Shown: positions 1-23,499 of the stretch, in pieces
Position numbering within the stretch: position 1 is the stretch's first letter
Layout: each line of letters starts with the position of its first letter
DNA from: Candidatus Poribacteria bacterium
GTDB lineage: Bacteria; Poribacteria; WGA-4E; WGA-3G
Direction: 5' to 3'
NCBI GenBank assembly: GCA_963663765.2
Contig: CAXXUA010000014.1
Coordinates: 1-34,304, forward strand
Length of the DNA: 34,304 nt
Translations under genes and position numbers: made by a program
The notes under the pieces: model-generated
What the model was told of the DNA's origin: nothing
What the model saw: the letters and a program-made list of their open reading frames with translations, nothing else
Database searches by the model: none

Positions 1-464
1 ATCTTTTTCAATAGGATTAAGTTCAGGTGAATAAGGTGGCAAAAATAGTAAACTCGCATCACACGCAGCGATGAGTTCTTTTGTCTTTTTCCCTTTATGT
101 TATAGAAATACGCATTATCCAATACGACGACATGGGACGCATCAAGTATCGGACATAACATGTTTTCAAGCCAAGCATTGAAGGCAAGTCCATCACAAGC
201 ACCCTCAAAAAGCATCGGCACTGTAAAACAACCATTGACTCGTGCAGCAATCAGTGAGGTGTGTCTATACTGATTGCTTGAGATTGTCCCTTCTATGCTA
301 ACCCCCTTGGGAGCATAAGCATATTGCCGGACACTTTCTATAGTAAAACCGCTTTCGTCAATAAAGACAGGTGTTTGTCCGTTCTGAAGTGCTGTCTGAA
401 GTTCAGTCTTATATACCTCCTGTTTTATATGACATTGTTCCTTGTAGGTGAACGTCTTTTTTTT
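1..464 (-). pseudogene. IS630 transposase DDE part (orfB), reached by -1 frameshift and broken by a 5-nt insertion
   Basis: The -1 frame reads KKTFTYKEQ...VFIDESGF...VVLDNAYF. Five extra nt (TATAA on the minus strand, 100-104) precede HKGKKTKELIAACDASLLFLPPYSPELNPIEKD in another frame. Confidence 0.82.
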
Positions 465-763
465 CGGGTACAACCGAGTTTCTTTAGACCATACCAAACA
501 CATTGCTGCGACACGCCAAAATGTGCAGCTCGTTCTTTCTGGGTGCTGTCTGGGAACTTTTTGACATGTTCAGCGAGTGCTTCTGGGTCAAGACGATGGG
601 GTTTTCGGGGTCCCGGTTTTTTATACGAGAGAGGATCTTTTGCGTCAAGCCATGTATAGATACAAGGGCGCGATATATTAAACCTTCGTGCAGCTTCAGC
701 TATACTGCCACCATCTGCTATAAAATCAAGAGCAAGTTTTCGTAAATCTGTTGAATATCTCAT
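425..763 (-). CDS. IS630 transposase, N-terminal HTH part (orfA)
   Basis: The MRYSTDLRKLAL...SIAEAARRFNIS HTH start is typical of IS630. The ORF ends just after an A8G run (plus-strand C-T8 at 456-464). Confidence 0.9.
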   Translation of the reverse strand: MRYSTDLRKLALDFIADGGSIAEAARRFNISRPCIYTWLDAKDPLSYKKPGPRKPHRLDPEALAEHVKKFPDSTQKERAAHFGVSQQCVWYGLKKLGCTRKKRRSPTRNNVI

Positions 764-2107: not shown

Positions 2108-3538
2108 CTAATGCATGTCTACTGAGAATATATAGCTGAGAATTGTTACCAAAATATAAGTTGCAACCAAGACGACCCCAAATGGACGTTTCAATTGGCT
2201 TCCCGATACAAAAATCCCAATTCGGAATACGATCAAAATAAACACCATTGCTGGAAACAGGAACTGGAAGAATTTTCCAGAGGCTTGTAAACCGGATGGG
2301 GTGGCAGCAGCTGAAACGCCAGCAACAAATAGAACATTCAAGATATCCGCACCGATGATGTTGCCAACTGCTAACTCACCATGCCCGCGTCTGACTGCTG
2401 TGATTGCTGTTACAAGTTCTGGTAATGATGTGCCAAACGCGACAAGCGTCGCAGCAACAATTTCTTCCGGTACATTAAATTTAATTGCAAGTGTCTTCAC
2501 TGTTGGGATAAGGATTTGTGCAGAAACAACTACAATTGCTATTGACCCAATAAGTTTAAGTAGGGTGAGAAGCGTGTTTGATCCTTTGTGTTCTGTTTGT
2601 TCATCGTTTTCAGATGTTGGTGTGATTGCACCTGCCCATCGGATAGACTGCCACACATATAATCCTAACAGAACAATAAAAACAATGCCTATGTATTGAT
2701 GGAGAGTGCCGCCTTGACTAAATACTTTTGCTGGAGATGACCAAGGAAAACAGGCTAATACCATGAGTATACCAGCACTTACCTGAACATTAGACAGCCG
2801 CGATGCTAACTCTCTATTGAAGGATAGGGGAGCAATGAGTGAAGCCAACCCTAAAATGAGTCCTGTATCACATATAATTGAACCGACTGCGTTTCCGAGT
2901 GCGAGTCCCGGTTCGCCTTGTATAGCCGACAACACTGAGACAGCCGCTTCGGGAGTTGTTGTGCCAATACTTACAATTGTTGCTCCGATAACTGCTTTTC
3001 CTAATCCCCATTGCGTTGAAAGTTGCACTGCTTCATCAACGAGCCAGTCTGCCCCTTGGCTGAGCGCAAAAAGTGATACTATGACTATTAACAAAAGCAG
3101 TAGTAGGTGAAGATTTCTTATCTTAAACTCCAACCAATCTGCTTTAATAAGTCTTGCCAGTTCTGTGATCACATCTTTGTCTTGAATTAGGTTATGGAAG
3201 TCTGTGTCATTGAATATTGCTTGTAATCCGCTATCTTCTTTTAAAAGTGCTATGAATTCTTCATCTATTTCTTCTACTAACTTCTGTAATTCTTCAGGAT
3301 TCGCAAATAATTGAGGTAAATCCTTCTGGATCAACTTTGCATGAATTTCCGGTTTCTTGAATTCCTTTAGAGCATTTGGTAGAAGGTTTTTTACATTATT
3401 CTGTTTTAACGTATCCTTATGCTTTTCTAATATTTTTTCAATAATTGAGGTATCTTCACCGTATACTGAGTGAATGACTAAACTTTGGAATATACAAGAT
3501 AAAATAATTATACAACCAAAAAGTATTCGTTTTACCAT
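2108..3538 (-). CDS. Ca2+/Na+ antiporter (CaCA, YrbG-like) with an N-terminal signal peptide and soluble extension
   Basis: It has two alpha-repeats (SIGTTTPEAAVS...GNAVGS and AFGTSLPELVT...GNIIGADILN) and about 10 TM segments. ATG 3538 follows GGAG; the ORF track starts at GTG 3550. Confidence 0.92.
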   Translation of the reverse strand: MVKRILFGCIIILSCIFQSLVIHSVYGEDTSIIEKILEKHKDTLKQNNVKNLLPNALKEFKKPEIHAKLIQKDLPQLFANPEELQKLVEEIDEEFIALLKEDSGLQAIFNDTDFHNLIQDKDVITELARLIKADWLEFKIRNLHLLLLLLIVIVSLFALSQGADWLVDEAVQLSTQWGLGKAVIGATIVSIGTTTPEAAVSVLSAIQGEPGLALGNAVGSIICDTGLILGLASLIAPLSFNRELASRLSNVQVSAGILMVLACFPWSSPAKVFSQGGTLHQYIGIVFIVLLGLYVWQSIRWAGAITPTSENDEQTEHKGSNTLLTLLKLIGSIAIVVVSAQILIPTVKTLAIKFNVPEEIVAATLVAFGTSLPELVTAITAVRRGHGELAVGNIIGADILNVLFVAGVSAAATPSGLQASGKFFQFLFPAMVFILIVFRIGIFVSGSQLKRPFGVVLVATYILVTILSYIFSVDMH

Positions 3539-3572
3539 TAACTTCTCCACAATACCGATTTTTTATTGTCTA

Positions 3573-3954: not shown

Positions 3955-4098
3955 CCATAGGCGTCACTTTAAGAAAAAAGTGTTGGTGTTTCTCTTGTGG
4001 GAGGGGTTTTCAACCCCGATTTGAGAGTAAAAGCGCGTAAAATCGGGGTTGAAAACCCCTCCCAGAAGAGGTCAAAATCCTTAAATTGACGCTTATGG
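3955..4098. mobile_element. 144-bp MITE (CCATAGGCGTCA...TGACGCTTATGG) with an internal long inverted repeat
   Basis: It has the same length as 22886-23029 and closely similar sequence. The internal arms are TTGTGGGAGGGGTTTTCAACCCCGATTT and AAATCGGGGTTGAAAACCCCTCCCAGAA. Confidence 0.88.
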
Positions 4099-5126
4099 GG
4101 TGCGCTTACAAAGCACGTCTATCATCGGGGGCGCGCTTACAAAGCACGCCTGCAGGTGGGGGGCGAGGATGGCGCGCTTGAAAAGCACGCCTGCAGTGGG
4201 GGTATGCCTGCAGGTAAGGGCGGGGATGGCGCGCTTGAAAAGCACGCCTGCAGTGGGGGTATGCCTGCAGGTGAGGGCAGGAATGGCGCGCTTACAAAGC
4301 ACGCCTGCAGGTGGGCGGCGAGGATGGCGCGCTTACAAAGCACGCCTGCAGGTGGACGGCGAGGATGGAGCGCTTACAAAGCACGCCTGCAGGTGGACGG
4401 CGAGGATGGCGCGCTTACAAAGCACGCCTGCAGTGGGGGTATGCCTGCAGGTAAGGGCGGGGAGGGCGCGCTTGAAAAGCACGCCTGCAGTGGGGGGAGC
4501 AGTTGGGGGCGCGCTTGAAAAGCACGCCTGCAGTGGGGGTATGCCTGCAGGTGAGGGCGGGGAGGGCGCGCTTGAAAAGCACGCCTGCAGTGGGGGTATG
4601 CCTGCAGGTGAGGGCAGGAATGGCGCGCTTACAAAGCACGCCTGCAGTGGGGGTATGCCTGCAGGTGAGGGCGGGGAGGGCGCGCTTACAAAGCACGCCT
4701 GCAGTTTGGGAGCAGTTGGGGGCGCGCTTGAAAAGCACGCCTGCAGTGGGGGTATGCCGGCAGGTGAGGGCGGGGAGGGCGCGCTTGAAAAGCACGCCTG
4801 CAGTGGGGGTATGCCTGCAGGTAAGGGCGGGGAGGGCGCGCTTGAAAAGCACGCCTGCAGTGGGGGTATGCCTGCAGGTAAGGGCGGGGAGGGCGCGCTT
4901 GAAAAGCACGCCTGCAGTGGGGGTATGCCTGCAGGTGAGGGCAGGAATGGCGCGCTTACAAAGCACGCCTGCAGTGGGGGTATGCCTGCAGGTAAGGGCG
5001 GGGATGGCGCGCTTGAAAAGCACGCCTGCAGTGGGGGTATGCCTGCAGGTGAGGGCAGGAATGGCGCGCTTACAAAGCACGCCTGCAGGGAGGATAAGAG
5101 GATGGCGCGCTTACAAAGCACGCCTA
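4099..5126. repeat. GC-rich tandem array of 21 REP-like cores GGCGCGCTT(AC/GA)AAAGCACGCCT
   Basis: I counted 21 cores. Most units are 57 bp, some 41-43 bp, and the first is about 31 bp. The linkers are re-used variants, not unique spacers. Confidence 0.92.
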
Positions 5127-5183: not shown

Positions 5184-5345
5184 GTTGAAAACCCCTCCCA
5201 CAAGAGGTGAAAATCCATAAGTTGAAAACCCCTCACACAAGAGGTGAAAATCCATAAATTGAAAACCCCTCACACAAGAGGTCAAAATCCTTAAGTTGAA
5301 AACCCCTCCCACAAGAGGTCAAAATCCTTAAGTTGAAAACCCCGA
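5184..5345. repeat. 37-bp tandem repeat (4 full copies plus a partial), derived from the 144-bp MITE interior
   Basis: The unit GTTGAAAACCCCTC(C/A)CACAAGAGGT(G/C)AAAATCC(A/T)TAA starts at 5184, 5221, 5258, 5295 and 5332. Confidence 0.88.
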
Positions 5346-5616: not shown

Positions 5617-5646
5617 TTGAATATTGGGGTGGAATTGTGATATAAT
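5617..5646 (+). promoter_or_regulatory. Sigma70 promoter with extended -10
   Basis: TTGAAT-18 nt-TATAAT with a TGn extension (TGATATAAT), 83 nt before ATG 5730. Confidence 0.6.
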
Positions 5647-5729: not shown

Positions 5730-7313
5730 ATGGTTATATTTAGGTGGAAGTATTTGTTTATTTTTGTATTGTCAATTTTGGTGAGTCCGTTTGTATTTGC
5801 AGACAATCATGGTAAAGAGGAACCTGTCAGTTTTCATAAAGACCTTGTTCCTATCCTCAAACGGAGTTGTCAAGGTTGCCATCATCCTGGTGATCCGAAT
5901 GGTGACTTTATAGTTACATCGTTTGATGAGTTTAAGCGAGGTGGCAAGGCAGGAGAAGCGATTATCTCTGAAAAGCCTGATGAGAGTCTCCTCATAGAGC
6001 TTATCTCTGGTGATCCACCGGCGATGCCCCAGAACCAAGACCCGCTTACAGATGATGAAATTGACCTATTCAGACGTTGGATTCTTGAAGGTGCGAAAGA
6101 TGATACACCTGAAACAGAGGAAATGACAGGCGAAAACTACCCTGTTTATACAGTGCCTCCCGTAATTTCTGCGATATCCTATTCCTCTGATGGTAGCATG
6201 CTGGCTGTGTCGGGTGTTAGTGAAGTATTGTTATATGACACGCAGACTTTTGAATTGAAAGCAAGATTGGTAGGAAAAGCACGTCGAATCACATCAATAG
6301 TTTTTACCAAAGATGGAAAAATGCTTGGTGTTGCTGGCGGTAATCCTGCTCAATTTGGTGAAGTGCAGCTCTGGAATACCGCTACGAATGAACTTATCAA
6401 AGCGATACGTTCCACTTATGATACGATCTACGGACTTTCATTCTCTCCGGACAACAGCCGTGTGGCATTTGGGAGTTCGGATAAAACGGTGCGTGTCTTA
6501 TCTATTTCTGATGAGAAGGAACTTGTAAAGTTTGACAATCATGGTGATTGGGTTTTCGGAACAGTATTTTCTACTGATGGATCACATTTTGTGAGTGGTA
6601 GTCGTGATACAGCCCTGAAATTAGTTGAAGTAGATACCGGTTCCTTTGTAGACGATGTCAACTCAAGTAATAAAAATTATGGTGAAATCAATGCAATTGC
6701 TCGACATCCGAATGCGGATCAGGTTTTGAGTGTCGGAGAAGATCGGATACCACGTTTATACAGGATGTTCCGACAGCGGCGTAGGGATGTGGGTAACACA
6801 GATTTCAACCTGATTAGAGCTTATGAAGCACAGTCTGGATCTATTGATGCGGTAGTTTTTTCTGCTGACGGTAGTAAAATTGCAGTAGGTAGTTCTAATG
6901 GTGAAGTGCGTGTCTACAATGTATCCGATGGCAAGAGACTATTAGCGATGCAAGGGGATACCGAAAGTGTATTTGCAGTTGCATTCCATCCTAACGGCAA
7001 GCAACTTGCTGCGGGTGGTTTTGATGGGAAAGTTCGTGTTTTTGACACGAACTCAGGTGAAGAACTGAAAGTCTTTATTTCTGTTCCGATTAAGACGATC
7101 GCAAGTGAGGAAGTCACTTTGGTAGTAACAGGTATGACGTGAGGGGCTTGTGTAGCTAAAGTGCAGGATGCACTTACGAAACATCAAGACGTTATCAGCG
7201 CTGAAGTTTCTTTACCGGATCAAGCAATTGTTAAGGTGCGTAAAAACAGTGTAAAGACAGATGAACTTGCAAATGTTATCAAAGCGGCAGGCTTTACTGC
7301 AACCGTTAAATAG
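5730..7313 (+). CDS. Exported planctomycete-type cytochrome c + WD40 propeller + HMA-domain protein; probable selenoprotein (527 aa, Sec at TGA 7140-7142)
   Basis: It has a signal peptide, VSFHKDLVPILKRSCQGCH...MP...WILEGA and WD40 repeats. The sequence then runs VTLVVTGMT-TGA-GACVAKVQDAL...IKAAGFTATVK*, in frame to TAG 7313. Confidence 0.88.
7151..7178 (+). promoter_or_regulatory. Putative bacterial SECIS element
   Basis: The stem-loop AAGTGCA-GGA-TGCACTT lies at 7159-7175. Its G-starting loop is 23 nt after the UGA, and the stem can be extended by GTA/TAC. Confidence 0.75.
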
Positions 7314-7325: not shown

Positions 7326-8780
7326 ATGTCTATAAAAACTCCGAATATCCTATGGATATGTACTGACCAGCAACGTTATGATACAATTGGTGCGCTTGGC
7401 AATCCGTTCGTATCAACACCGAATATTGATAGTTTGGTTACTGAGGGTGTTGCATTCACACATGCGTTTTGTCAAAGTCCGATATGCACTCCGAGTCGTT
7501 CAAGTTTTTTAACAGGCATGTATCCAAGTGCAACGCATGTTAATTATAACGGTAATGCTTACTATCCAGAGACGTACCCACTAATAACGCGTACACTTGC
7601 GGATATTGGTTACGATTGTGGTCTAATTGGGAAGCTTCATCTGGCGAGTGCTTATGGCAAAGCGGAACCTCGTGCAAATGACGGTTATCGCTATTGGCAA
7701 TATAGTCATGCGCCAAGAGATGATTGGCAGGAGGGACACGACTATGCTGATTGGGTGCGTTCAAAAGGATATATACTTGGTGAGTTGATCCAGGATCCAG
7801 CAGGTGTCCCTGCAGATTTACACCAAACCACTTGGTGTGCGGAAAAGACGATTGAGTTCATTCTTGAGGAACGAGATATACCTTGGCTTGCGAGTGTGAA
7901 TATCTATGACCCGCACCCACCGTTTAATCCACCACAATCTTATAGGGAACAGTTTAATCCTGAAGACATGCCCGATCCTCTTTTCATGGATAGTGATTTA
8001 GAACAACAGGAAAGATTAGGTCAGATTGATTTTCAGTCTAAAGTTCGAACACCTGATGAATTGGACATTCGAAATCCGATTTTGCCGCGCCCTCCACGTC
8101 GTGATGGAGAACCGGTAGTTGTCGGTGAAAGGGATGCGAAGACGCTTATTGCGGCATATTATGCTATGATTAAACAGATTGACGATCAGTTAGGACGGAT
8201 TCTGGAAGTTCTATCGGAAATAGGACAACGTGAAAACACCGTGATTATCTTAACAAGTGATCACGGAGAGACACTCGGTGATCATGGACTCATACAAAAA
8301 GGGTGTCGTTTCTATGAAGGATTGGTTAGAGTGCCGTTGATTTTCTCTTTACCTGGGCAGTTTGTTGGTGGTTTAAAGAGTGATGCGCTTGTTGAATTGA
8401 TTGACAAAACACCAACACTTTTGGAATTAGCAGGTCTGCCGATTCCAAAACAGATGCACGGACGTTCATTGTTACCGATCCTACGTGGTGAAGCAGATCC
8501 AAACCATCATCGTGACTTTGTTCGGTGTGAATACTATGACGCGATTAATATGCGCGACCACACATTCGCAACAATGTACCGAGATAAGCGATACAAATTA
8601 GTCGTATATCACGGACACGAGGAGGGAGAACTCTACGATTTAGTGGACGATCCTGATGAGTTCAATAATTTATGGTTCGCGTCTGACAAGCAGGACATAA
8701 AAATGGATCTGTTAAAACAGAGTTTTGATGCGTCTATGTTTGCTATGGATAGAGGTCCTGAACGTGTGGGGCCGATGTGA
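7326..8780 (+). CDS. Formylglycine-dependent sulfatase-family hydrolase
   Basis: Motifs PNILWICTDQQR, CTPSRSSFLTG (CxPxR), GKLHL and TSDHGE. No signal peptide is visible. Confidence 0.95.
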   Translation: MSIKTPNILWICTDQQRYDTIGALGNPFVSTPNIDSLVTEGVAFTHAFCQSPICTPSRSSFLTGMYPSATHVNYNGNAYYPETYPLITRTLADIGYDCGLIGKLHLASAYGKAEPRANDGYRYWQYSHAPRDDWQEGHDYADWVRSKGYILGELIQDPAGVPADLHQTTWCAEKTIEFILEERDIPWLASVNIYDPHPPFNPPQSYREQFNPEDMPDPLFMDSDLEQQERLGQIDFQSKVRTPDELDIRNPILPRPPRRDGEPVVVGERDAKTLIAAYYAMIKQIDDQLGRILEVLSEIGQRENTVIILTSDHGETLGDHGLIQKGCRFYEGLVRVPLIFSLPGQFVGGLKSDALVELIDKTPTLLELAGLPIPKQMHGRSLLPILRGEADPNHHRDFVRCEYYDAINMRDHTFATMYRDKRYKLVVYHGHEEGELYDLVDDPDEFNNLWFASDKQDIKMDLLKQSFDASMFAMDRGPERVGPM

Positions 8781-8878
8781 TAGACCGATGTGATAGAATC
8801 AATCAAAAATTTGTTGCTTATTTTGTAAAAAGCGTGGCAATTGGGATATTCAATCACTCACAATTATCAGGAAAGAAT

Positions 8879-9700
8879 ATGTATAGAAAATTTGTATTTT
8901 ACTTGACATTAATGTTAATATATGGTTTAAATATAGGAAATGCTGCGGTAGAATTGGGATTTGTGTATCTTGGTGATGACGGTCCATTTACTGCACCTGC
9001 ACTGGAATTCGCAAAGGAAAACTACACTACAACGCAATTGACAAAAAACGACTTGAAGAGTACGACGTTCAAAAGGTTTGCTGTTGTGTGGTGGCACGAA
9101 GGGGATACTGATCCTGGTGCTTTATCTAATGCTGAAATTGATGCATTTTTGGATTACGCAGAGAGTGGCGGTGCAGTGCTGTTGACAGGATGGGCAATTC
9201 GTTATGCTACACCGATGGGACTTGAAGATGTTGAAGCACGTCAATTTGGTCCTGAATTAGACGATGGACAAAATGTTGGCATTACCGTTCTCCAAGAGAC
9301 GGTTGACCATAAATTAGTTAACGGACTTAAGAATATTGATGGGGAAACACCAAAACTCGGTGATAGGATACAGATCAATTCAACAGGGTTTCCAAAAAGT
9401 GGCGACTATCACGACAAGATTTGGAAGAACTTTATTACACTTGCCAATGCTTGGGGTCCACCAGAAAGCGATTGGGGTGATACTATTGCTGCATTCGGTT
9501 ATTGGAAAGCAGGTAACGGGAAGGTGTTTAATATGAATTGGCGACTTCCGAACTTTCACGAAAATAATCAAGATATTGAACAGTTAGAACAACTCACAGA
9601 GAATGTGATCAATTGGTTAGCGAGTGAATCGGCATATTTAGATGTCTCTTCACACGGTAAATTGCCAATAGTGTGGGGAAAATTAAAAAATCAGAGGTAA
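8879..9700 (+). CDS. Secreted hypothetical protein (class I GATase-like/DUF4960-like fold suspected) with C-terminal GKLPIVWGKLK tail
   Basis: ATG 8879 follows AGGAAAG and gives a signal peptide; the ORF track starts at 8777. The protein contains AVVWWH...FLDYAESGGAVLLTG. Confidence 0.7.
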   Translation: MYRKFVFYLTLMLIYGLNIGNAAVELGFVYLGDDGPFTAPALEFAKENYTTTQLTKNDLKSTTFKRFAVVWWHEGDTDPGALSNAEIDAFLDYAESGGAVLLTGWAIRYATPMGLEDVEARQFGPELDDGQNVGITVLQETVDHKLVNGLKNIDGETPKLGDRIQINSTGFPKSGDYHDKIWKNFITLANAWGPPESDWGDTIAAFGYWKAGNGKVFNMNWRLPNFHENNQDIEQLEQLTENVINWLASESAYLDVSSHGKLPIVWGKLKNQR

Positions 9701-9784
9701 TAAAATCTATAATTACACGTTAATATAAGGTGAATAGGCGGATTATTCCGTATAAATTAGTTTCATATCACATTGGAGGTATAT

Positions 9785-12262
9785 GTGGAACTCAGGTTTA
9801 ACTTGGTTGTTTTGCTGCTTATTGCGTTTCTTTTCTGTTTCGGATTTCAGCATTCAAGCTGGAGTGAGATGGATGAGGCAGCACCGAGTATAGAAGTGCC
9901 GAAAATATCAGCGTTGAAGATTCATCCAGAGTCATTGACGTTGGAGCATGCGCGTGATGGTAGGCGTGTGCTGGTTTCGGGACAAACAAAAGATGGAAAA
10001 TGGGTAGATGTGACATCTTGGGCTGTGCTAAAACCGACTACAGACGGTGTGAAAGTGCATGAAGATGGCTATATCTTTCCTGAAAAAGTAGGTACAACAA
10101 AAATTGCAGTATTGGTAGAGGGTGTTAGCACAGAGTTACCGGTGATCGTGAAAAGCGTAGATGCACCGTCGGTCAGTTTTGTGCGGGATGTCATGCCGAT
10201 CATAAGCCATGCGGGTTGTAACAACGGGACGTGTCATGGTTCTGCAAAAGGCAAAAATGGATTCAAACTTTCACTTCGTGGTTACGATCCGGAGTTTGAC
10301 TACGAACTTTTGATAGAAGATATTTCTGGTCGACGTTTTAATCGGGCATTTCCAGAGCAGAGTCTCATGCTGCTCAAACCGACATCCGAAGTGCCGCACA
10401 AAGGTGGTCAGGTGGTTGTGCCAGATTCGCGCGATTATAAGCTGATTCATCAGTGGATCAGCGAAGGTGTTGCTTCTGATGTAGGAACAACCCGACGTGT
10501 GGAAAGGTTAGAAGTGTTCCCCGATTCTGCGGAATTGTCAATACCGGGCATGAAACAGCAATTGTTGGTCATCGCACACTATCCTGATGGAACTACCCGT
10601 GATGTTACGCGTGAAGCAAAATTCACCAGTAGTGTAAGTGAAGTTGGAAAAGTAACTGATGATGGTGTTGTGACTGCGGAACGGCGTGGTGAAACCGCTA
10701 TCCTCACTCGATATGAGGGAAAGTACAGCACAAACGGCATTATCGTCATGGGTGACCGTAGTGGTTATAAGTGGGTGGAAACCCCTGAATACAACTATAT
10801 AGACACACACGTCCATAACAAACTAAAACGATTGAAGATTTTACCTTCAGAACTGAGTACGGACGAGGAGTTTATCCGGCGTATTTACTTTGATATGACA
10901 GGACTTCCACCGAATCCTGAGCAGGTGCGGTCTTTTCTCTCTGATAAGACACCATCCAAGGAGAAACGAGAACAACTCATTGATGTGTTGGCAGAATCAC
11001 CTGAATATGTTGATAATTGGACACACAAATGGGGGGATTTACTGCAATCGAACCGTAAATTTCTTGGTGAGCGCGGTATGTGGCTTTTCAAGCAGTGGAT
11101 ATATGAGTCAATTGCCGATAATCGTCCGTATGATAAATTTGTGCATGATTTGATTACTGCGACTGGGAGTGTTTATACTAATCCGGCAGCGAACTATTTT
11201 CGTGTTTCTCGCGAATATACGGCTGCAGTGGAAAACACGACGCAGCTTTTCCTTGGTGTGCGGTTCTCCTGTAATAAGTGCCATGATCATCCGTTTGAAG
11301 TATGGACTCAGAATCAATATTATGAGTTTGGTGCATTTTTTTCCGATGTAAAGCTGAAAAACGGTAGGTTGCCGGGTGAGGAGGTCGTATACGCGAGTTT
11401 CACACCGACACCTGTTCAACATCCGCGGACGTTAGCAGTTGTGCCCGCAGCCGTTCCGTTTGGGGAAACGAAGAAAGACACTGCGGATAAACGTGAAGCA
11501 CTTGCGGAATGGTTGACATCAAAAGAGAATCCGATGTTTGCTAAAGCAGGGGTGAACCGAATCTGGAGTTATTTCATGGGACGTGGTATCATTGACCCTG
11601 TTGATGATATTCGGTCAAGTAACCCCCCCAGTAATCCGGAATTGCTGGATGCACTGACGAAAGATTTTGTAGACAATGGGTTTGATATAAAACATATCAT
11701 GAAAACGATTGCCCGTTCTCGTACTTACCAACAGAGTATCAAGACGAATGAATGGAACAAAGAGGATACGATTAATTTCTCACATGCAATTGCGCGACGT
11801 CTGACAGCGGAACAGTTGTTAGATGCGATCGGTGTTGCTACGGGAAGTCAACCGAAGTTTCAGGGTGTGCCGAAAAACTTGCGTGCCGTTCAATTACCGG
11901 ACAGCAAAGTTAAGGATGATGGATTTTTGAAGTTATTTGGTCGTCCTGAACGTGAGAGTTCTTGTGAATGTGAAAGAACAACAGAAGTTAGCCTTGCTCA
12001 TGCAATGAACCTTATTAACGGACCGACGGTTGCCGATGCGATTATTGACCCGAACGGTCGGATTGCTAAACTCCTGAAAGAGAACAAGGAAGATCGTTTG
12101 CTTGTTGAGGAGTTATATCTTGCGACATTTGCTCGGTTTCCGCAGAAAAACGAATATACGATAGCGATTGAACATCTTGGCAGTGCTGAATCTAAAGAGG
12201 AAGGCGTGCAAGATTTGATGTGGGCATTGATCAATAGTCCTGCATTCCTTTTCAATCGTTAA
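9785..12262 (+). CDS. DUF1549/DUF1553 (PSCyt2/PSD1) protein with Ig-like domains
   Basis: Motifs include GCNNGTCHG...GFKLSLRG, EFIRRIYFDMTGLPP, CNKCHDHPF, VNRIWSYFMGRG...PSNPELLDAL, FGRPERESSCECER and SPAFLFNR. GTG 9785 follows GGAGGT; the ORF track starts at 9773. Confidence 0.92.
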   Translation: MELRFNLVVLLLIAFLFCFGFQHSSWSEMDEAAPSIEVPKISALKIHPESLTLEHARDGRRVLVSGQTKDGKWVDVTSWAVLKPTTDGVKVHEDGYIFPEKVGTTKIAVLVEGVSTELPVIVKSVDAPSVSFVRDVMPIISHAGCNNGTCHGSAKGKNGFKLSLRGYDPEFDYELLIEDISGRRFNRAFPEQSLMLLKPTSEVPHKGGQVVVPDSRDYKLIHQWISEGVASDVGTTRRVERLEVFPDSAELSIPGMKQQLLVIAHYPDGTTRDVTREAKFTSSVSEVGKVTDDGVVTAERRGETAILTRYEGKYSTNGIIVMGDRSGYKWVETPEYNYIDTHVHNKLKRLKILPSELSTDEEFIRRIYFDMTGLPPNPEQVRSFLSDKTPSKEKREQLIDVLAESPEYVDNWTHKWGDLLQSNRKFLGERGMWLFKQWIYESIADNRPYDKFVHDLITATGSVYTNPAANYFRVSREYTAAVENTTQLFLGVRFSCNKCHDHPFEVWTQNQYYEFGAFFSDVKLKNGRLPGEEVVYASFTPTPVQHPRTLAVVPAAVPFGETKKDTADKREALAEWLTSKENPMFAKAGVNRIWSYFMGRGIIDPVDDIRSSNPPSNPELLDALTKDFVDNGFDIKHIMKTIARSRTYQQSIKTNEWNKEDTINFSHAIARRLTAEQLLDAIGVATGSQPKFQGVPKNLRAVQLPDSKVKDDGFLKLFGRPERESSCECERTTEVSLAHAMNLINGPTVADAIIDPNGRIAKLLKENKEDRLLVEELYLATFARFPQKNEYTIAIEHLGSAESKEEGVQDLMWALINSPAFLFNR

Positions 12263-12321
12263 ACCTGCTATAAAATTGTGCTGTTATGAAATCAGCACAA
12301 TCAAAATGGAGGAAATTATTG

Positions 12322-13767
12322 ATGATATCGTTACCACAAGCACCCGGAAGATTATGTGATGGGTTCTCACGTAGAGAGTTTCTCCGCGTGGGTGGCGCAG
12401 CGATGCTGGGCATTAGCCTACCACAAGTATTGTCACTCAAAGCTAATGCGAGTACGACAGTTGAACCCGCGAAGGCTCTCAACGGATGGGGCAAAGCGGA
12501 TTCTGTCATTCTGCTTTTCTTACAAGGCGGACCGAGTCACATTGACATCTGGGATCCAAAACCGGATGCGCCTTCTAATATCCGTGGTGAATTTAACCCG
12601 ATACCAACGAATGTTCCTGGCATTCAGTTGTCAGAGACGATGCCGCGTTTGGCAAAACAGATGGACAAAGCATGTCTTATCCGTTCAGTAAGTTATACGC
12701 CTGCTGGTCTTTTCAATCACACCGCAGCGATGTATCAGATGGTTACTGGTGAGACACCGGACAAGGTTGCGCCTTCTGGGCAGCTGGATCCACCTTCACC
12801 TGCAGATCATCCGAATGCTGCTGCACACATTGCGAAGTTCCGACCACCAGATGAACCGATGTTGGCAGCAGTCCAACTCCCGCGCCCGATGCAGGAAAGT
12901 AATATTATCGGTAAAGGTGGCAATGCGGGGTTCCTCGGCAGAGCGTATGACCCGTATTTTCTCTTTCAAGATCCGAATAAAGAGATAAAACTTGATGATT
13001 TGAAACTCCGTCCGGAAGTGCCGCCGATGCGCTTGCAGCGTCGTAAGTCACTGCTTGAAACGATCAACGCCAATATGCCTGAAATTGATAAAGTCGCAGA
13101 ATCTTACGCACTGAATGAATACTATGAAAAAGCGTATAACCTGATTTTATCCCAGAAGGCGCGTAATGCGTTTGATTTGTCGCAGGAAAAGAATGAATTG
13201 CGTGACAAGTATGGTCGACATACATTTGGTCAGAGCGCGCTCCTTGCCCGTCGTTTAGTTGAATCGGGTACGCGATTTGTCCAAGTGAACTGGCCCTCAG
13301 TGGCAAACGGCAATCCGAATGATACTGCATGGGATACACACGCAGCGAATTTCGGACCACTGAAAAACCTTCATTGTCCTAAGTTAGATAGTGCAGTTTC
13401 TTCGCTGCTTGAGGATTTGGATCAACGCGGCATGTTAGAGAGCACGCTTGTGCTTGCTATTGGAGAATTTGGTCGTTCACCACGCATGGGTGTTAGCACG
13501 TCTGGCAATGGTAACGCTCCTGATGGACGTGATCACTGGCCGTATTGCTACACAGGTTTGATTGCTGGTGCGGGCGTACAAGGTGGTCAGGTTTACGGTA
13601 AGTCTGATGCTACGGGTTCAACACCGCTTGAAAAACCTGTCCATCCGCGCGATATCCTCGCTACGATTTACCATACTCTTGGTATTGATCCACACACTAT
13701 TGTGATGAATCATTTAGATCAACCGCGTGAATTGGTCAAGGGTGAAGTGATTACGGGGATATTTTAA
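12322..13767 (+). CDS. DUF1501 family protein, Tat-exported
   Basis: It has the twin-arginine SRREFLRVG plus LQGGPSHIDIWDPKP, WDTH, GEFGRSP and GRDHWP. ATG 12322 follows GGAGG; the ORF track starts at 12286. Confidence 0.93.
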   Translation: MISLPQAPGRLCDGFSRREFLRVGGAAMLGISLPQVLSLKANASTTVEPAKALNGWGKADSVILLFLQGGPSHIDIWDPKPDAPSNIRGEFNPIPTNVPGIQLSETMPRLAKQMDKACLIRSVSYTPAGLFNHTAAMYQMVTGETPDKVAPSGQLDPPSPADHPNAAAHIAKFRPPDEPMLAAVQLPRPMQESNIIGKGGNAGFLGRAYDPYFLFQDPNKEIKLDDLKLRPEVPPMRLQRRKSLLETINANMPEIDKVAESYALNEYYEKAYNLILSQKARNAFDLSQEKNELRDKYGRHTFGQSALLARRLVESGTRFVQVNWPSVANGNPNDTAWDTHAANFGPLKNLHCPKLDSAVSSLLEDLDQRGMLESTLVLAIGEFGRSPRMGVSTSGNGNAPDGRDHWPYCYTGLIAGAGVQGGQVYGKSDATGSTPLEKPVHPRDILATIYHTLGIDPHTIVMNHLDQPRELVKGEVITGIF

Positions 13768-17363: not shown

Positions 17364-17849
17364 TTGACTCGTCGTAGTTTTTTCACAGCACTCGGTTGGG
17401 GTAGTTTCACGGCGGCACTTGGAACGTGTTTTGGTCCGGGTTTAGTGCGTTATTTGTATCCACGTGTATTGTATGAACCTTCGTCAGTATTTCAAGCGGG
17501 ATTTCCAGCAGAATATCCGCCGGGTAGTGTAAGCGAAAAATATAAGAAAGAGCCTTTTGGTGTATGGATTGTTCGGCGTCAGGATGGAGAGTTTTATGCG
17601 CTCCTGACAACCTGCACACATTTGGGGTGCACGCCGCGTTGGCTCTCTTCCGAAAATAAATTCAAATGTCCGTGCCACGGTAGCGGTTTCGACCGTGAGG
17701 GGATCAACTACGAAGGACCTGCTCCACGTCCACTTGAACGTGTGAAAATTACATTGGCGGAAGATGGACAACTTCAAATTGATAAGTCCGTCAAGTTTTT
17801 GGGTGAAAAAGGTCAATGGGTAGACCCTGGTGCATCTTTGAAAGTCTAA
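17364..17849 (+). CDS. qcrA: Rieske [2Fe-2S] subunit of a quinol:cytochrome c reductase
   Basis: It has the Tat signal TRRSFF, CTHLGC, CPCHGS and GPAPRPL. The start is TTG after GGGAG. Confidence 0.95.
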   Translation: MTRRSFFTALGWGSFTAALGTCFGPGLVRYLYPRVLYEPSSVFQAGFPAEYPPGSVSEKYKKEPFGVWIVRRQDGEFYALLTTCTHLGCTPRWLSSENKFKCPCHGSGFDREGINYEGPAPRPLERVKITLAEDGQLQIDKSVKFLGEKGQWVDPGASLKV

Positions 17850-17912
17850 CCTGAGGGGGTATCATTTGCGTCTGAGCTGATTCCGTGTATCTTCAGACAG
17901 AAAAAGGAAATA

Positions 17913-18686
17913 ATGAACGAAGAACGAAAAGGACTAAAAGAAAAGATTACGAATTCCGACATTTGGAAATCTATTTTCCGACACGGTTACGAAAAAACGG
18001 GTCGTCGTTATACACTGCAGGTATTGCAAAACGTATGGTTGCATTTGCATCCACCTCGTATTTCCCGCCACGCCTTAAACTTCCGATTCACATGGTGTAT
18101 GGGTGGTATCACCTTCCTGATGTTTCTTGTGACAGCCGTCACAGGTGTTCTGTTGATGTTTTACTACCGTCCGACAGCCGAATATGCCTTCGCTGACATA
18201 CAAGCACTTGAATTTGATATTCCGTTTGGTATGCTATTACGGAACATGCACCGGTGGGCAGCACACGGTATGGTTATATCTGTGATGCTCCACATGTTTA
18301 GGGTGTTCTTGACAGGTTCTTATAAGAAGCCTCGTGAGTTCAATTGGGCAGTTGGTGTTATTTTATTGCTCATCACATTTTTCCTGAGTTTTACAGGTTA
18401 TTTGCTTCCGTGGGATCAGTTGGCACTTTGGGCGGTTACAGTCGGGACGAACATGGCAAGTGCTACCCCAGCGTTAGGTAGTGAAGGTCCGTTTACCCCT
18501 ACAGATATTATCACACCAGCAAATGACGTTAGATTTGCCTTGCTTGCGGGAACTATTGTTGGACCGTCAACGTTGTTGCGGTTCTATATTTTGCATTGTG
18601 TTGCTGTTCCGTTGGTGGCAAGTGTGTTGATGGCACTACATTTTTGGCGTGTACGTAAAGATGGTGGCATATCTGGACCTCTTTAG
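17913..18686 (+). CDS. qcrB: Cytochrome b N-terminal subunit (b6-like)
   Basis: Motifs WCMGGIT, RNMHRWAAHGMVISVMLH, PREFNW, GYLLPWDQ, RFYILH-x14-HF and GGISGPL. Confidence 0.95.
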   Translation: MNEERKGLKEKITNSDIWKSIFRHGYEKTGRRYTLQVLQNVWLHLHPPRISRHALNFRFTWCMGGITFLMFLVTAVTGVLLMFYYRPTAEYAFADIQALEFDIPFGMLLRNMHRWAAHGMVISVMLHMFRVFLTGSYKKPREFNWAVGVILLLITFFLSFTGYLLPWDQLALWAVTVGTNMASATPALGSEGPFTPTDIITPANDVRFALLAGTIVGPSTLLRFYILHCVAVPLVASVLMALHFWRVRKDGGISGPL

Positions 18687-18790
18687 TGACAAGTTTTTCA
18701 TAAGAAATACAGCATTTATTCGGTTTTTTTCACAAGCCCCTTTGTAATGTTTTTGAAATTTTTTCGTTTTGAAGGAGATAGAAGTTAGGT

Positions 18791-19657
18791 ATGGAGTATT
18801 TTTTAGCACTTGTAACGAAACCTGATAATGTTCCAATTTTGGCAATTCTGTTTCTGATTCCGTTTTTTCTCTGGTTATCATACAGACAGGCGCGTCAAAC
18901 AGACCGCACAGGTGTCCCATCCGATGCGGAATTAAACGACAAGGTTTACGTTTGGCCCTATCTCTGTCGTAATGAGTTTATCTGTGCGATTATTATAATG
19001 TTAGTGCTGGGTGTATGGTCAATTATGATTGATGCCCCGCTTGAAGAACCGAGTGATCCTGCCAAGACACCGAATCCCTCTAAAGCTCCGTGGTATTTTC
19101 TTGCACTTCAAGAGATGTTGGTCTATTTTGACCCTTGGATTGCCGGTGTGGTATTGCCGGGGTTGATTATTGCGGGACTCATTGCTATTCCATATATTGA
19201 CATCAATCCTAAAGGTAAAGGTTATTATACCATCAAGGAACGTCCCTTTGCACTTGGGGTGTTCTGCTTCGGATTTATCATATTGTGGATTGTCTTGATG
19301 ATAGTCGGAACATTCTTAAGGGGTCCTGGGTGGAACATATTTATGCCGTGGGAGTATTGGGATCCGCACAAAGTTGTGCCGTTAACTAATGTGAACCTTT
19401 CAAGTTTGATTGGGATACGGGGTGAAACAACAGCGATTTTCTTTGGGATTGCGGTTATCGCAGGGTATTACGCTCTCGGTCCGATCTACTATTTTTGGAA
19501 ATGTAAAAGCAGCCGTTTTTTACAGGAGCTTGGGTTGATCAGGTATATCATCGTCTCATTTCTATTTTTGACTATGCTTGCGTTACCGATAAAAATGATA
19601 CTACGGCTTGGGTTGAATGTGAAATATATTTTAGAATCACGTTTGTTAAACATTTAA
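18791..19657 (+). CDS. Cytochrome b C-terminal subunit (subunit IV-like)
   Basis: It is a polytopic membrane protein with VWPYL, APLEEPSDPAKTPNPSKAPWYF and IPYID, located directly after qcrB. Confidence 0.88.
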   Translation: MEYFLALVTKPDNVPILAILFLIPFFLWLSYRQARQTDRTGVPSDAELNDKVYVWPYLCRNEFICAIIIMLVLGVWSIMIDAPLEEPSDPAKTPNPSKAPWYFLALQEMLVYFDPWIAGVVLPGLIIAGLIAIPYIDINPKGKGYYTIKERPFALGVFCFGFIILWIVLMIVGTFLRGPGWNIFMPWEYWDPHKVVPLTNVNLSSLIGIRGETTAIFFGIAVIAGYYALGPIYYFWKCKSSRFLQELGLIRYIIVSFLFLTMLALPIKMILRLGLNVKYILESRLLNI

Positions 19658-19720
19658 TACTTACAACTTGTGCTGAACTTTGTTTTAGATATTTTGCTTG
19701 ATATGGAGGTTTAACATTTC

Positions 19721-22700
19721 GTGAGGAACAAAAAAGAGATTCCCGTTGAAAATAAATCATATTCTGTTTTGTTCTTTATTCTGTCAGCACTGTTAGGGTT
19801 GGTGACGATATGGGGATTCTGGGATGAAATGATCACGCGCCGTCCTTGGAAGGAACATCAACAGCAGTTTTATCAATATGAATATGAAAAGACTATGACA
19901 GAATTAGAAAACGCAGAGAAAGACTTACCTGAAATGCCAACCGCTCCTGAGATTGATGAGAAAGCGTTGAGAAAATTGGAGAAAGAGGTTAATATAAAAA
20001 AGATGGCGTTAGATGATGCGATGCAAGCACGTAAGTTTGAGCAGAGCAAATCTGATGCGATCAACTATAAATATCAACATAGTCTACACGAAGCACATAG
20101 TGAAGAAACAGAAAAAGTACTAAAATGGAAAGAGAAATTAGACGACTATGAACAACGGATTGAAGGTGAACTCACTGATACGATCATAGCAGCTCAGAAT
20201 GAATATGCTGATGAAAATAAGACACTTGCCGATTTTTATAAAACGAACAACGACCCTGAAAATGCACTTTCTACCTACCTCATAGCACAAAAATATAAAC
20301 CAGACGATACTGCTATTGCTGAAAGGATTTCTGAAGTACAACAATCACTTGTTGCCCTTGAAGCGGTGAAAGCCGAGCATGCTAATGTGGATCGTATTAA
20401 AGAGAAATTAGCAGATGTTGGCGGCATCAAACGAAAATTCCTCGGCAGCCTATTAGAAAATCCATTTAAGCAGACACGGACTATCGTTCAACACTATCTG
20501 GAAGACTTTGATTATAAGGCGGATAGGTGTGAAACCTGCCATTTTGCAGTTGACAAGAGTGGTTACGATAGTGATGCACAAGAGACTTTTGAAATAGAAG
20601 GTGATGGTGAAGAGCTCGTAAAGTATCAACTCAAACATCCAAGGGTGAGACCTGGCAGTGAGACAATATATATTGATGGATTTGATGTAGAAGCAGAAGA
20701 GTATGAACTTTCGGAAGAAGGTCTGCTTACCTTTAATGATCCTGATGTTTTTGGTGATGTAGAAATTTCTTATGAAACCGATTACCATCGTGCCTTACGG
20801 ACTCACCCGCATCGTGAAGTTCTACTCGCAAAACACCCACTTGAAAAATTCGGATGTACACCTTGCCATGGTGGACAAGGACGCGGACTGACAGCAAAAT
20901 CTGCACACGCACTTACACATGCCGAATACTGGTTGACTCCTGTACTTGGGATGGATGCTGAAACAGGTAGAACATCTGAAGAGAAAAAAGGATATATGGA
21001 GTCTAATTGTCGACGTTGTCACGATGGTGTGATGAAGTTAGACTTCGGTGTAGACCCTGATACAAACGCTCCTATAGACTATGCGCCGCATCTTTCTAAA
21101 GGTTTGGCACTCTTTGAAGACCTCGGATGTCATGGTTGTCATGCAGTAGAGGGTTACAGTGCGTTGGATAATATCGCAAAGGTTGGTCCCGCGCTTGATA
21201 AGATTGGAAGCAAAGTGCAGGATACCGCATGGCTTGAAAGTTGGATAAAGGAACCCGAAGCATACCTACCAAATACAACAATGCCGAACTTCTTTCCAGC
21301 GGAAGGCATGAGCCAAATTGTCTACTTAAAGAATGGAGGACAACGTACGGGTGTTGTTACTGAAACTGAAACAAGTTACACTGTGAAGACAGACGATGGA
21401 ACAGAATTTCCTTATGCTAAGGATGATGTGTTACGTGTTGTTGACGAGGTAAAATCTATCGCTGCCTACCTTGCGAGGATGAACGACCAAACCATTGATG
21501 ATTCACAAGCCACATATTCTACATCTGAGAGTGCGATTAAAGCTGGTGAGGAGACGGTAAAAACTGTTGGATGTCTTTCCTGCCATACCGTAGGCGACTT
21601 AGGGAGTGATTTTGCACCAGCATTGGATAGTGTCGGCACAAAGGTCACCCCAAATTATCTTTATGGTTGGATTGCAAATCCGAGGTCTTATGATCCTGAT
21701 ACCACTATGCCAAGTTTGCGCTTGAGTGACACAGATCTTAACAATGTTGTCGCGTATCTCATGAATTTGCAAGAACCCACAACAACAGCTGTTTCCGATT
21801 CGGTAGGAGAAATAGATGTAGCAGAAGGGGAAAAACTTGTCAGAACTTATGGGTGTTTTGGTTGTCACGAAATACCGGGGTTTGAAAACGAATCGAAAGT
21901 TGGTGCGGATCTCGGTGAATTTGGCGCGAAACTTGCTGCGGAACTTGACTATGGTGACACTGTAGATATAGACCATCATTCTTGGCATGCTTGGACCATA
22001 GGAAAAATTACCAACCCACGTCGCTACCAAACGCGTCGGATTGTTTCTCGTATGCCAGTTTTCAATAATCTCAAGGATAGTGATGAGGATGCGAAAGCAC
22101 TTGCAGTTCTATTGAAGAGTTTTCAACCGGAAGCTTATCCACTCAGTTATACCTTTGATCATGCAGTTGAACCGAATAGGGTTGAGAAACAGAAACAAAT
22201 TGATGCTGGTAGACGTATTGTCAAGAAATATAACTGCACAGGATGTCATGTGATTGAAGGTGAAGGTGGCGCTTATACGGATGTGATCACCGCACATGAA
22301 GGTTTAGATGTAATCACGTCTAAGCAATTGTCTCCACCCCCCTTACAAGCGGAAGGTGCGCGAGTTTATCCTGATTGGTTGTTTAACTTCCTCAAAGATC
22401 CGTCAAAGGAGATACGTTATGGACTCAAGGTGCGCATGCCCACATTTGAGATGTCAGATGAAGAAGCAACGACACTTGTCAAATACTTCTATGCATTAGA
22501 TGATGAACCCTTCCCCTACGAGACACTACCAGAACCAGAAGCAACGCAAACGGAATTACGTGTTGGCAAACAGATTTTTGACGCCCTGAAATGCGACTCA
22601 TGTCATCCATCACAAGGCGAAACCATTCCTGCTAATAGTGACAAGGCAGGAAGACCTGACCTATCCTTAGCTAATGGCCGACTGAAACCGGATTGGTTGA

Positions 22701-22867
22701 TTGACTGGATGAAAGATCCACAAACATTCCAACGCGGTACTGCGATGCCACAAGCGTGGCCCCTTTCTGTAGATGGACAACATACACCTTATGGAGACTA
22801 TGCTGATAGGGATGCAGAAAAACAGATACGGTTGGTTCGTGACTATCTATTATCGTTAGGTAGATAG
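19721..22867 (+). CDS. Membrane-anchored octaheme cytochrome c (1048 aa)
   Basis: It has an N-terminal TM helix and a coiled region. The eight CxxCH motifs are CETCH, CTPCH, CRRCH, CHGCH, CLSCH, CFGCH, CTGCH and CDSCH. Confidence 0.93.
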   Translation: MRNKKEIPVENKSYSVLFFILSALLGLVTIWGFWDEMITRRPWKEHQQQFYQYEYEKTMTELENAEKDLPEMPTAPEIDEKALRKLEKEVNIKKMALDDAMQARKFEQSKSDAINYKYQHSLHEAHSEETEKVLKWKEKLDDYEQRIEGELTDTIIAAQNEYADENKTLADFYKTNNDPENALSTYLIAQKYKPDDTAIAERISEVQQSLVALEAVKAEHANVDRIKEKLADVGGIKRKFLGSLLENPFKQTRTIVQHYLEDFDYKADRCETCHFAVDKSGYDSDAQETFEIEGDGEELVKYQLKHPRVRPGSETIYIDGFDVEAEEYELSEEGLLTFNDPDVFGDVEISYETDYHRALRTHPHREVLLAKHPLEKFGCTPCHGGQGRGLTAKSAHALTHAEYWLTPVLGMDAETGRTSEEKKGYMESNCRRCHDGVMKLDFGVDPDTNAPIDYAPHLSKGLALFEDLGCHGCHAVEGYSALDNIAKVGPALDKIGSKVQDTAWLESWIKEPEAYLPNTTMPNFFPAEGMSQIVYLKNGGQRTGVVTETETSYTVKTDDGTEFPYAKDDVLRVVDEVKSIAAYLARMNDQTIDDSQATYSTSESAIKAGEETVKTVGCLSCHTVGDLGSDFAPALDSVGTKVTPNYLYGWIANPRSYDPDTTMPSLRLSDTDLNNVVAYLMNLQEPTTTAVSDSVGEIDVAEGEKLVRTYGCFGCHEIPGFENESKVGADLGEFGAKLAAELDYGDTVDIDHHSWHAWTIGKITNPRRYQTRRIVSRMPVFNNLKDSDEDAKALAVLLKSFQPEAYPLSYTFDHAVEPNRVEKQKQIDAGRRIVKKYNCTGCHVIEGEGGAYTDVITAHEGLDVITSKQLSPPPLQAEGARVYPDWLFNFLKDPSKEIRYGLKVRMPTFEMSDEEATTLVKYFYALDDEPFPYETLPEPEATQTELRVGKQIFDALKCDSCHPSQGETIPANSDKAGRPDLSLANGRLKPDWLIDWMKDPQTFQRGTAMPQAWPLSVDGQHTPYGDYADRDAEKQIRLVRDYLLSLGR

Positions 22868-22885
22868 GTGCGGATTGAATTCGTC

Positions 22886-23494: not shown

Positions 23495-23499
23495 AGATT

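Follow-up and report, generated by a model that had tools for sequence, protein, structure and literature searches.

A 34,304-nucleotide stretch of DNA from a Candidatus Poribacteria bacterium (assembly GCA_963663765.2, contig CAXXUA010000014.1; the whole stretch is called the window below) carries on its forward strand, at positions 5730-7313, a gene that standard annotation ends at an in-frame TGA. This gene is very probably one selenoprotein gene, and not a 470-codon gene followed by junk. That the UGA is recoded as directed by a selenocysteine insertion sequence (SECIS), so that the gene encodes the full 527-residue protein, is if anything slightly more probable still, and that residue 471 is selenocysteine (Sec) rather than cysteine is somewhat less certain. 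The mechanism itself is standard and this type of Sec site is known; the architecture and the lineage are undescribed and are systematically mis-annotated.

The reading frame and its predicted read-through product

In the list of open reading frames (ORFs) and in the sequence itself, the plus-strand frame opens with an ATG at 5730 and runs for 470 codons to the TGA at 7140-7142, which lies in the context GGT ATG ACG TGA GGG GCT TGT. Beyond the TGA, 56 codons are open in the same frame (7143-7310). An initial sequence-only reading had claimed that the 470-residue ORF stops exactly where the first cysteine of a heavy-metal-associated (HMA) motif belongs, and both its coordinates and the 56-codon continuation are correct. 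When the TGA is read through, the product has 527 residues, ...EEVTLVVTGMT-U-GAC-VAKVQDALTKHQDVISAEVSLPDQAIVKVRK...FTATVK, with the residues after U-GAC starting VAKVQDAL. The features on which the argument depends are as follows.

5730..7313, + strand: proposed recoded coding sequence, 527 codons and then TAG; standard annotation ends at 7142 (470 amino acids)
7140..7142, + strand: in-frame UGA at residue 471, proposed selenocysteine, in the first ligand position of G-M-T-[C/U]-x-x-C
7149..7151, + strand: Cys474, second ligand of the UxxC motif, Cys in 81/81 TGA-form sequences
7159..7175, + strand: putative bacterial SECIS hairpin, a 7-bp stem AAGUGCA/UGCACUU with the apical loop GGA (7166-7168)
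7311..7313, + strand: proposed true stop TAG, with two TAA codons coming next

The same early reading had put the U at the first cysteine of a GMTCxxC motif, and residue 471 is aligned to that position both by the Pfam HMA model and by HMA domains of solved structure. In a phmmer search against the latter, U471 and C474 match both GMTCxxC cysteines of the metal-binding domains of Cu-ATPases, such as ATP7B, and MerP and CopZ chains are also among the matches of the HMA tail.

Conservation of the TGA codon among relatives

A genome scan with one genome per species returned 229 relatives, the best 80 loci of which were examined. These loci come from Poribacteria or from metagenome-assembled genome records, at 61-91% protein identity, the closest being 91% identical. 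The frame through codon 471 is unshifted in all 80, and in 79 of them codon 471 is TGA. It is preceded by G-M-T in 78 loci, including two copies in the locus L071, and by G-M-M in the locus L077. The remaining locus, L080 (also P0272), is the most divergent at 61% and has TGT (Cys) at this codon; its gene is a single continuous 576-codon ORF with the motif GMTCDAC, and its product matches the Pfam HMA, PSCyt1 and WD40 models. The expectation that orthologues would keep the TGA was thus borne out. The sequence-only reading had also allowed for a lone nonsense mutation, or for close relatives with cysteine and an unconserved hairpin; what was found is TGA in 79/80 genomes, with one TGT form that is sister to the rest.

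The copies in L071 are an observation in their own right: the 3' part of the gene is present twice, about 1 kb apart (positions 6470 and 7484 of that locus), each time with the TGA and an intact HMA tail. The second copy lies on a long tree branch; either tandem duplication or faulty assembly could have produced this arrangement.

A search of protein databases gave 1,467 significant matches. The best 120 of these, which are 70-98% identical and 439-494 amino acids long, cover just ~82-89% of the read-through query, and 120/120 terminate in ...GMT, NCBI- and JGI-named entries among them. It had been predicted that gene callers would truncate the protein at the UGA, and this is what they do; since all 120 of the best database copies are cut at this codon, the HMA domain is invisible to annotation. 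The recurrence of one stop at one position, in 79/80 genomes and 120/120 best protein matches, goes well past what chance would allow.

A quick IQ-TREE phylogeny, rooted with 13 HMA-less homologues on long outgroup branches, places the Cys form as sister to all 81 TGA-form sequences (Shimodaira-Hasegawa approximate likelihood ratio test, SH-aLRT, 100) and supports the HMA-bearing clade at 99. A single Cys/Sec switch, in either direction, would explain this distribution. When the C-terminal region of the window protein was used to look for full-length forms, 49 candidates were returned and none was significant; with the tail of the Cys form as query, its own cluster P0272 was the sole match. 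These nearly empty results suggest that Cys forms are rare, the sensitivity of such searches being limited by their word index.

Protein-level selection downstream of the UGA

Codon usage on the two sides of the TGA was compared in an alignment of 80 TGA-form sequences; the 81st had been removed by a filter against any N and against upstream parts shorter than 1,290 nt. Upstream of the TGA, the mean entropy at the first, second and third codon positions is 0.33/0.20/1.25, and downstream of it, with the hairpin codons excluded, the values are 0.46/0.33/1.22. The dominance of the third position on both sides of the TGA indicates purifying selection on protein. Cys474 is fixed in 81/81 sequences with its codon free to vary (TGT in 48, TGC in 33), which points to protein-level selection in the interval between the UGA and the hairpin, and the valine at +4 is likewise fixed in 81/81, with four codons in use. 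The frame ends at codon +57, with TAG or TAA, in 80/81 TGA-form sequences, and conservation collapses beyond it. On the evidence of these codon patterns, the frame downstream of the UGA is very probably translated as protein.

The candidate SECIS hairpin

A hairpin with a G-initiated loop, 23 nt after the UGA, had been part of the original proposal, and it is present at 7159-7175, with the loop G at 7166 and 23 nt separating the UGA from the loop. The consensus for bacterial SECIS elements given in PMC13188914 (Fig. 2 legend) comprises 3-9 nt in the apical loop, 4-16 bp in the upper stem, a G in the first two loop positions, a distance of 16-37 nt between UGA and loop, and a minimum free energy of -7.5 kcal/mol or lower. 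The hairpin agrees with all four geometric terms of this description, having a loop of 3 nt, a stem of 7 bp, a loop that starts GG, and a spacing of 23 nt. Folded as a bare 17-nt element it reaches -6.4 kcal/mol, and 0/200 shuffled sequences fold as well.

The hairpin is conserved down to its synonymous sites. Its codons, +6 to +12 (AAA GTG CAG GAT GCA CTT ACA), show near nil synonymous variation (GTG in 81/81, CAG in 79/79, GCA in 80/81 and AAA in 73/74), and elsewhere in the gene invariant Val, Ala and Gly positions use three or four codons. The normalised synonymous entropy over these seven codons is 0.09, against a gene mean of 0.706. This is the lowest value among 387 seven-codon windows, the next non-overlapping one standing at 0.40. 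In the 69 distinct sequences, 97.9% of the stem cells are paired. The hairpin appears to be under constraint at the level of RNA, and this evolutionary pattern is the strongest evidence for a recoding signal. In the Cys form, the G residues of the loop are gone: the loop is AAC, and CAA, ACT and GCG replace CAG, GAT and GCA. The same pattern of loss is described in PMC13582414 for Cys-type relatives of Sec hydrogenases.

Alternative readings of the UGA

Several results weigh against the recoding of this codon as selenocysteine. None of selA, selB, selC and selD was found in the 34,304-nt window by Pfam and tRNA scans, and a tRNA(Sec) search returned 0 tRNAs there and 0 in all 80 loci. No credible second UGA-containing gene was seen in the window or in ~1.6 Mb of related loci; in the in-frame-UGA scan of those loci, the gene described here forms the top group and the rest resembles out-of-frame noise. 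The stability of the hairpin is borderline with respect to the limit of -7.5 kcal/mol, at -6.4 for 17 nt and -7.4 for 33 nt. It reaches -10.8 kcal/mol only when 46 nt are folded, a stretch that does no better than shuffles (z -1.25), and a 71-nt stretch around it (z -1.1) likewise does not outperform shuffles. There is no significant covariation in the stem (the score was matched by 41/500 shuffles, and one pair changed on both sides), as the hairpin hardly varies. A lower stem (columns 10-14 with 37-41) was considered and rejected, being 80.3% paired and without covariation. Rfam has no family at gathering thresholds in the window, and its matches near the hairpin are at chance level (E 4.9 and 6.8). 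The Cys form retains a 6-bp hairpin, so part of the stem may reflect the peptide K-V-Q-x-A-L and not an RNA function. Lastly, and with regard to function, the models for HMA subfamilies (MerP, CopZ and the UxxU selenoprotein) all score the tail below their cutoffs.

Of the other readings of the codon, the one that survives best accepts the hairpin and disputes the residue: the same element would recode UGA as cysteine by means of a tRNA of the tRNA(ReC)/SelC* type, giving a CxxC site and no selenium. The DNA of the window holds nothing that tells Sec from Cys insertion, and PMC13582414 describes tRNA(ReC) as reading UGA as Cys with a downstream SECIS, in ~17% of its Sec-type genomes. According to the same source, tRNA(ReC) is chiefly a feature of genomes that have UxxU motifs, its frequency in other Sec-type genomes being ~2.3%; the passages on these tRNAs do not name Poribacteria among the carriers. 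Conservation also bears on this point. A costly UGA is kept in 79/80 genomes where TGT or TGC would give Cys for free, which argues that the residue differs from Cys. With these considerations, insertion of cysteine is improbable.

The published record of selenium use in the phylum is in line with insertion of Sec. PMC13582414 counts Poribacteria as one of nine phyla with Sec-type Group 4 hydrogenases, and according to PMC5649159 SelA and SelB occur in most bins of sponge symbionts. In Table S4 of the latter, the entry Ca_Poribacteria_WGA3G (the 36th genome column, as counted by hand) lists SelA 2, SelB 1 and SelD 1; SelA and SelD, which are needed only for making Sec, are thus listed for Poribacteria WGA-3G. 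One of the 80 loci (L049) is from Candidatus Poribacteria bacterium WGA-3G and has the TGA form, so that at least one TGA-form genome is reported, in that table, with SelA, SelB and SelD.

Less probable again is a reading in which the TGA is a true stop. The PSCyt1-WD40 protein would then be complete at 470 residues, and what follows in frame would be a 50-residue peptide started at GTG-7161 or would go untranslated. A GTG-started ORF of 50 amino acids does exist (7161-7313), with GTG in 81/81 sequences, and distant homologues from other phyla end soon after the propeller, a GMTCxxC-like motif being found in 0/25 representatives under 800 amino acids. However, the six codons from the TGA to the GTG are under protein-level selection (Cys474 and the Val at +4, each 81/81), and a peptide from 7161 would be without strand beta1 and both metal ligands. 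Beta1 and the G-M-T are encoded upstream of the stop, in a frame that is unshifted across the 80 loci, and in the Cys form the two parts are one continuous ORF. The conserved nucleotides, moreover, reach 3' of the GTG as a palindrome, unlike the pattern of a ribosome-binding site.

A nonsense mutation, a pseudogene, or a sequencing or assembly error in the window is barely credible. One window alone would leave room for an error or a pseudogene, but the same TGA is present in 79/80 independently assembled genomes across ~30% protein divergence and at the end of 120/120 best protein clusters, and selection has kept the frame beyond it intact, which refutes both; a lone nonsense mutation is ruled out by the conservation of the TGA together with coding selection downstream. 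Just as hard to credit is a reassignment of TGA throughout the genome to a standard amino acid such as Trp or Gly, for which the open frame itself is the sole point in favour, given that TGA is a normal stop in the window (the 21 main ORFs end in TGA 3 times, TAA 13 and TAG 5), that no further credible extension appears in the window or the related loci when TGA is taken as a sense codon, and that the codon aligns to Cys and not to Trp or Gly.

Domain architecture of the proposed 527-residue protein

Recoding of the UGA as selenocysteine, the preferred reading, would give a protein with four recognisable parts.

5730..5804, + strand: predicted N-terminal export signal, residues 1-25, MVIFRWKYLFIFVLSILVSPFVFA and the following D, by sequence inspection
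5868..6029, + strand: PSCyt1 (Planctomycete cytochrome c) domain, residues 47-100 (PF07635), with the CxxCH motif at 5868-5882
6165..7103, + strand: seven-bladed WD40 beta-propeller, about residues 146-458, by Pfam, AlphaFold2 and Foldseek
7104..7310, + strand: HMA domain, residues 459-527, spanning the UGA, with a beta-alpha-beta-beta-alpha-beta fold

By inspection, the N-terminus, MVIFRWKYLFIFVLSILVSPFVFA followed by DNHG, has a basic n-region, a hydrophobic core and small residues ahead of D25, and the AlphaFold2 (AF2) model has a helix at residues 3-18 with low confidence. It looks like an export signal, and the protein like an exported one. An exported location is consistent with the remainder of the sequence, because c-type cytochromes mature outside the cytoplasm. 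The PSCyt1 match scores 37.5 bits against a cutoff of 22 (E 3.6e-9) and contains the haem motif C47-Q-G-C50-H51, whose C47, C50 and H51 are unchanged across 39 aligned homologues; the domain would carry an attached haem. WD40 and beta-propeller Pfam families span ~residues 146-460, with 111 bits for PF00400. The propeller is modelled with a predicted local distance difference test (pLDDT) score that is mostly >90, and Foldseek gives it a target-normalised template modelling (TM) score of 0.92 to the 7-bladed propeller 7bie_A.

The HMA assignment extends over the stop codon. The last 75 residues match HMA (PF00403; E 4.9e-10) at 40.1 bits, where 24.8 is the cutoff, and the 56 post-stop residues by themselves reach 25.6 bits. 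In the AF2 model, for which the input was 39 homologues, strands are found at 459-467, 488-494, 498-504 and 523-526 and helices at 472-483 and 510-519. The mean pLDDT of the model is 86.8, and the means of 10-residue blocks in the HMA domain are 83-93. Residue 471 lies in the beta1-alpha1 loop, ahead of helix 472-483, which is the metal site of HMA domains. The fusion of haem c, beta-propeller and Sec-HMA domain that had been put forward from the sequence holds up, in that Pfam and AF2 find PSCyt1, WD40 and HMA all present. When the Protein Data Bank was searched with the whole protein by sequence and by fold, only generic WD40 propellers were returned, and none has this architecture.

Gene neighbourhood and likely partners

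The genes downstream are on the same strand and are preserved in most relatives. They are listed here with a promoter-like site upstream.

5617..5646, + strand: promoter-like sequence TTGAAT-18-TATAAT with TG, the start codon following after ~85 nt
7326..8780, + strand: sulfatase gene (PF00884, E 1.2e-46), 12 nt past the stop
8777..9700, + strand: conserved ORF whose start overlaps the sulfatase stop, with a weak DUF4960 match below cutoff
9773..12262, + strand: PSCyt2/PSD1 (DUF1549/DUF1553) protein gene by Pfam, a likely functional partner
12286..13767, + strand: DUF1501 protein gene (PF07394, E 4.7e-104)

The promoter-like site has 10/12 consensus matches and is the best of 8; with 4.9 +/- 2.4 sites in shuffled sequence, it is weak evidence. 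No terminator-like site was found between the gene and the sulfatase, and the two are probably in the same operon. Among the 80 loci, the sulfatase follows on the same strand in 70, the conserved ORF in 69, the PSCyt2/PSD1 gene in 70 and the DUF1501 gene in 67. These counts are lower bounds, as some contigs end early, and one sulfatase match is on the opposite strand. The DUF1501 proteins of the 67 loci have a median identity of 91%. In the Cys-form locus (L080, 7855-12177), the PSCyt2/PSD1 gene comes directly after the Cys-form gene, with no sulfatase between them.

Gene fusions associate some of the same proteins. Of 11 homologues from other organisms scanned with Pfam, 5 run on from PSCyt1-WD40 into PSCyt2, with PSD1 present as well in 4 of the 5. 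Taken with the gene order, these fusions suggest a PSCyt1-WD40 module that acts jointly with PSCyt2/PSD1 and DUF1501 proteins. DUF1501 genes are the usual companions of PSCyt2/PSD1 genes. No mer or cop genes were found nearby in the Pfam scan of the window.

Upstream of the gene are a DDE_3 transposase fragment (3-503, minus strand) and a Na/Ca-exchanger gene (2108-3550, minus strand). Neither of these, nor the ORF at 1059-1361, occurs in any of the 80 related loci; as the downstream side is syntenic, the upstream side may be a rearrangement point. Two repeat arrays are also found there. The first, at 4097-5088, is a GC-rich tandem repeat with a 57-nt period, ~10.5 copies and super-periods of 114 and 213 nt, and the second, at 5184-5343, consists of 4.3 copies of a 37-nt unit that are 95% identical. 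Neither resembles a CRISPR array, since both parts of each unit repeat. Further downstream in the window (17364-30597 and 33398-34057) is a large respiratory-type cluster with a Rieske protein, a split cytochrome b, a 1,048-residue multihaem cytochrome c, several cbb3-type cytochrome c proteins, a cytochrome-bd-like protein and an EB_dh-domain protein, after which come an ABC-2 transporter and COX2.

Proposed mechanism and significance

In the mechanism proposed here, the UGA at 7140-7142 would be recoded in translation, with the hairpin at 7159-7175 and its GG loop acting as the bacterial SECIS. This element would recruit an elongation factor of the SelB type with Sec-tRNA(Sec), selenocysteine would be placed at residue 471, and the ribosome would go on for 56 codons to the TAG. 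The exported product would then run from a signal peptide through a mono-haem PSCyt1 domain and a seven-bladed WD40 propeller to a MerP/CopZ-like HMA domain at the C-terminus, the motif of which is G-M-T-U-x-x-C. The selenolate-thiolate pair of this motif may bind a soft metal, Cu(I) or Hg(II)-like, or may form a periplasmic selenenylsulfide redox couple, and the site might work beside the haem and in concert with the products of the neighbouring PSCyt2/PSD1, DUF1501 and sulfatase genes. A function as a periplasmic soft-metal site or selenenylsulfide redox site next to a one-electron haem is suggested with low confidence.

To a specialist the finding extends known biology with little surprise, because recoding is textbook material and Sec-HMA domains are known. 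One consequence is for annotation: a conserved Poribacteria protein has an entire domain that is missed both by annotation and by metabolic reconstructions of sponge symbionts that are built on domains. It also adds a selenoprotein family and an architecture to a phylum for which one report of selenoproteins was found in the literature, and would put a soft-metal or redox site built on Sec into an exported haem protein that gene order and domain fusions link to PSCyt2/PSD1/DUF1501 proteins of uncharacterised function. Since ribosomes that stopped at the UGA would make 470 residues resembling the natural HMA-less homologues of other phyla, selenium supply could toggle two isoforms. A bolder proposal, which is unlikely as it stands, is that the Sec-HMA addition, specific to Poribacteria, makes a widespread, uncharacterised scaffold of periplasmic cytochrome c and propeller into a metal or redox relay that depends on selenium and serves the PSCyt2-PSD1/DUF1501 (and sulfatase) machinery. 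If true, this would open the first experimental way to learn what the very large PSCyt/PSD/DUF1501 families do, and would be an example of an exported selenoprotein wired to haem.

Comparison with known systems

Proteins of the HMA type that carry Sec are already on record, as the sequence-only reading had maintained: PMC2398784 (in its Global Ocean Sampling, GOS, table) and PMC13188914 (in a table) list such proteins, including a cation-transporting ATPase (UxxC), MerP/mercuric transport proteins and the UxxU metal-binding protein NF041115. The present protein resembles them in that Sec takes the place of a metal-ligand Cys in a GMTCxxC-type loop, with the signal just 3' of the UGA. It differs in that those are small stand-alone proteins or N-terminal domains of transporters, whereas here the domain is at the C-terminus of a haem-c/WD40 protein. 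The fusion of haem c, WD40 and Sec-HMA is not in the selenoprotein table of PMC13188914, a 2026 review, whose main text contains none of the terms WD40, propeller, HMA or Poribacter-, and uses 'cytochrome' for other families only. A full-text literature search, with most subscription journals and supplements outside its range, found nothing on this Sec-HMA/PSCyt1-WD40 family.

Comparison with models of individual HMA families gives a similar picture. Against the UxxU selenoprotein model NF041115, the tail scores 41.2 bits with a cutoff of 95, and its motif is UxxC, not UxxU; against MerT_CopZ_Se (NF045683), it scores 15.5 with a cutoff of 375. The scores are 34.7 for MerP (TIGR02052, cutoff 92.55) and 40.5-42.6 for the CopZ models NF033794, NF033795 and NF047957 (cutoffs 85-95), so that the tail is a member of none of these families. 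It shares with MerP and CopZ the fold and the loop position of both ligands, and would be periplasmic like MerP if the signal peptide is real. Unlike in those proteins, the first ligand here would be Sec, and no mer or cop operon is adjacent. Judged by these scores, the tail probably works like those proteins and yet stands outside their families.

The hairpin can be set beside the SECIS of the E. coli fdhF type. Both are hairpins that lie inside the coding region, immediately 3' of the UGA, and begin a small apical loop with a G; they are unlike in that the stem is short here (7 bp), the loop has 3 nt, and there is no evident bulged U. The sequence of the upper stem may resemble that of fdhF.

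The closest comparison for the rest of the protein is with the PSCyt1-WD40 proteins of Planctomycetota, Verrucomicrobiota, Acidobacteriota and other phyla (phyla as labelled in the ESM Atlas), to which the N-terminal 460 residues are 39-49% identical, with the CxxCH motif and the propeller in common. A look-up in that atlas with the Cys form returned PSCyt1-WD40 clusters only and is uninformative on the HMA domain. A phmmer search of the whole library is dominated by giant WD40 proteins, and HMA-less and PSCyt2-fused relatives are still visible in it. Unlike the Poribacteria protein, the distant homologues end a few residues past the last blade (an HMA-like motif is present in 0/25 representatives under 800 amino acids, and none ends in GMT), and others run on into Big_2-PSCyt2-PSD1. 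Among the sequences compared, the HMA tail is found only in the Poribacteria clade, and it looks like a Poribacteria-specific addition to this scaffold.

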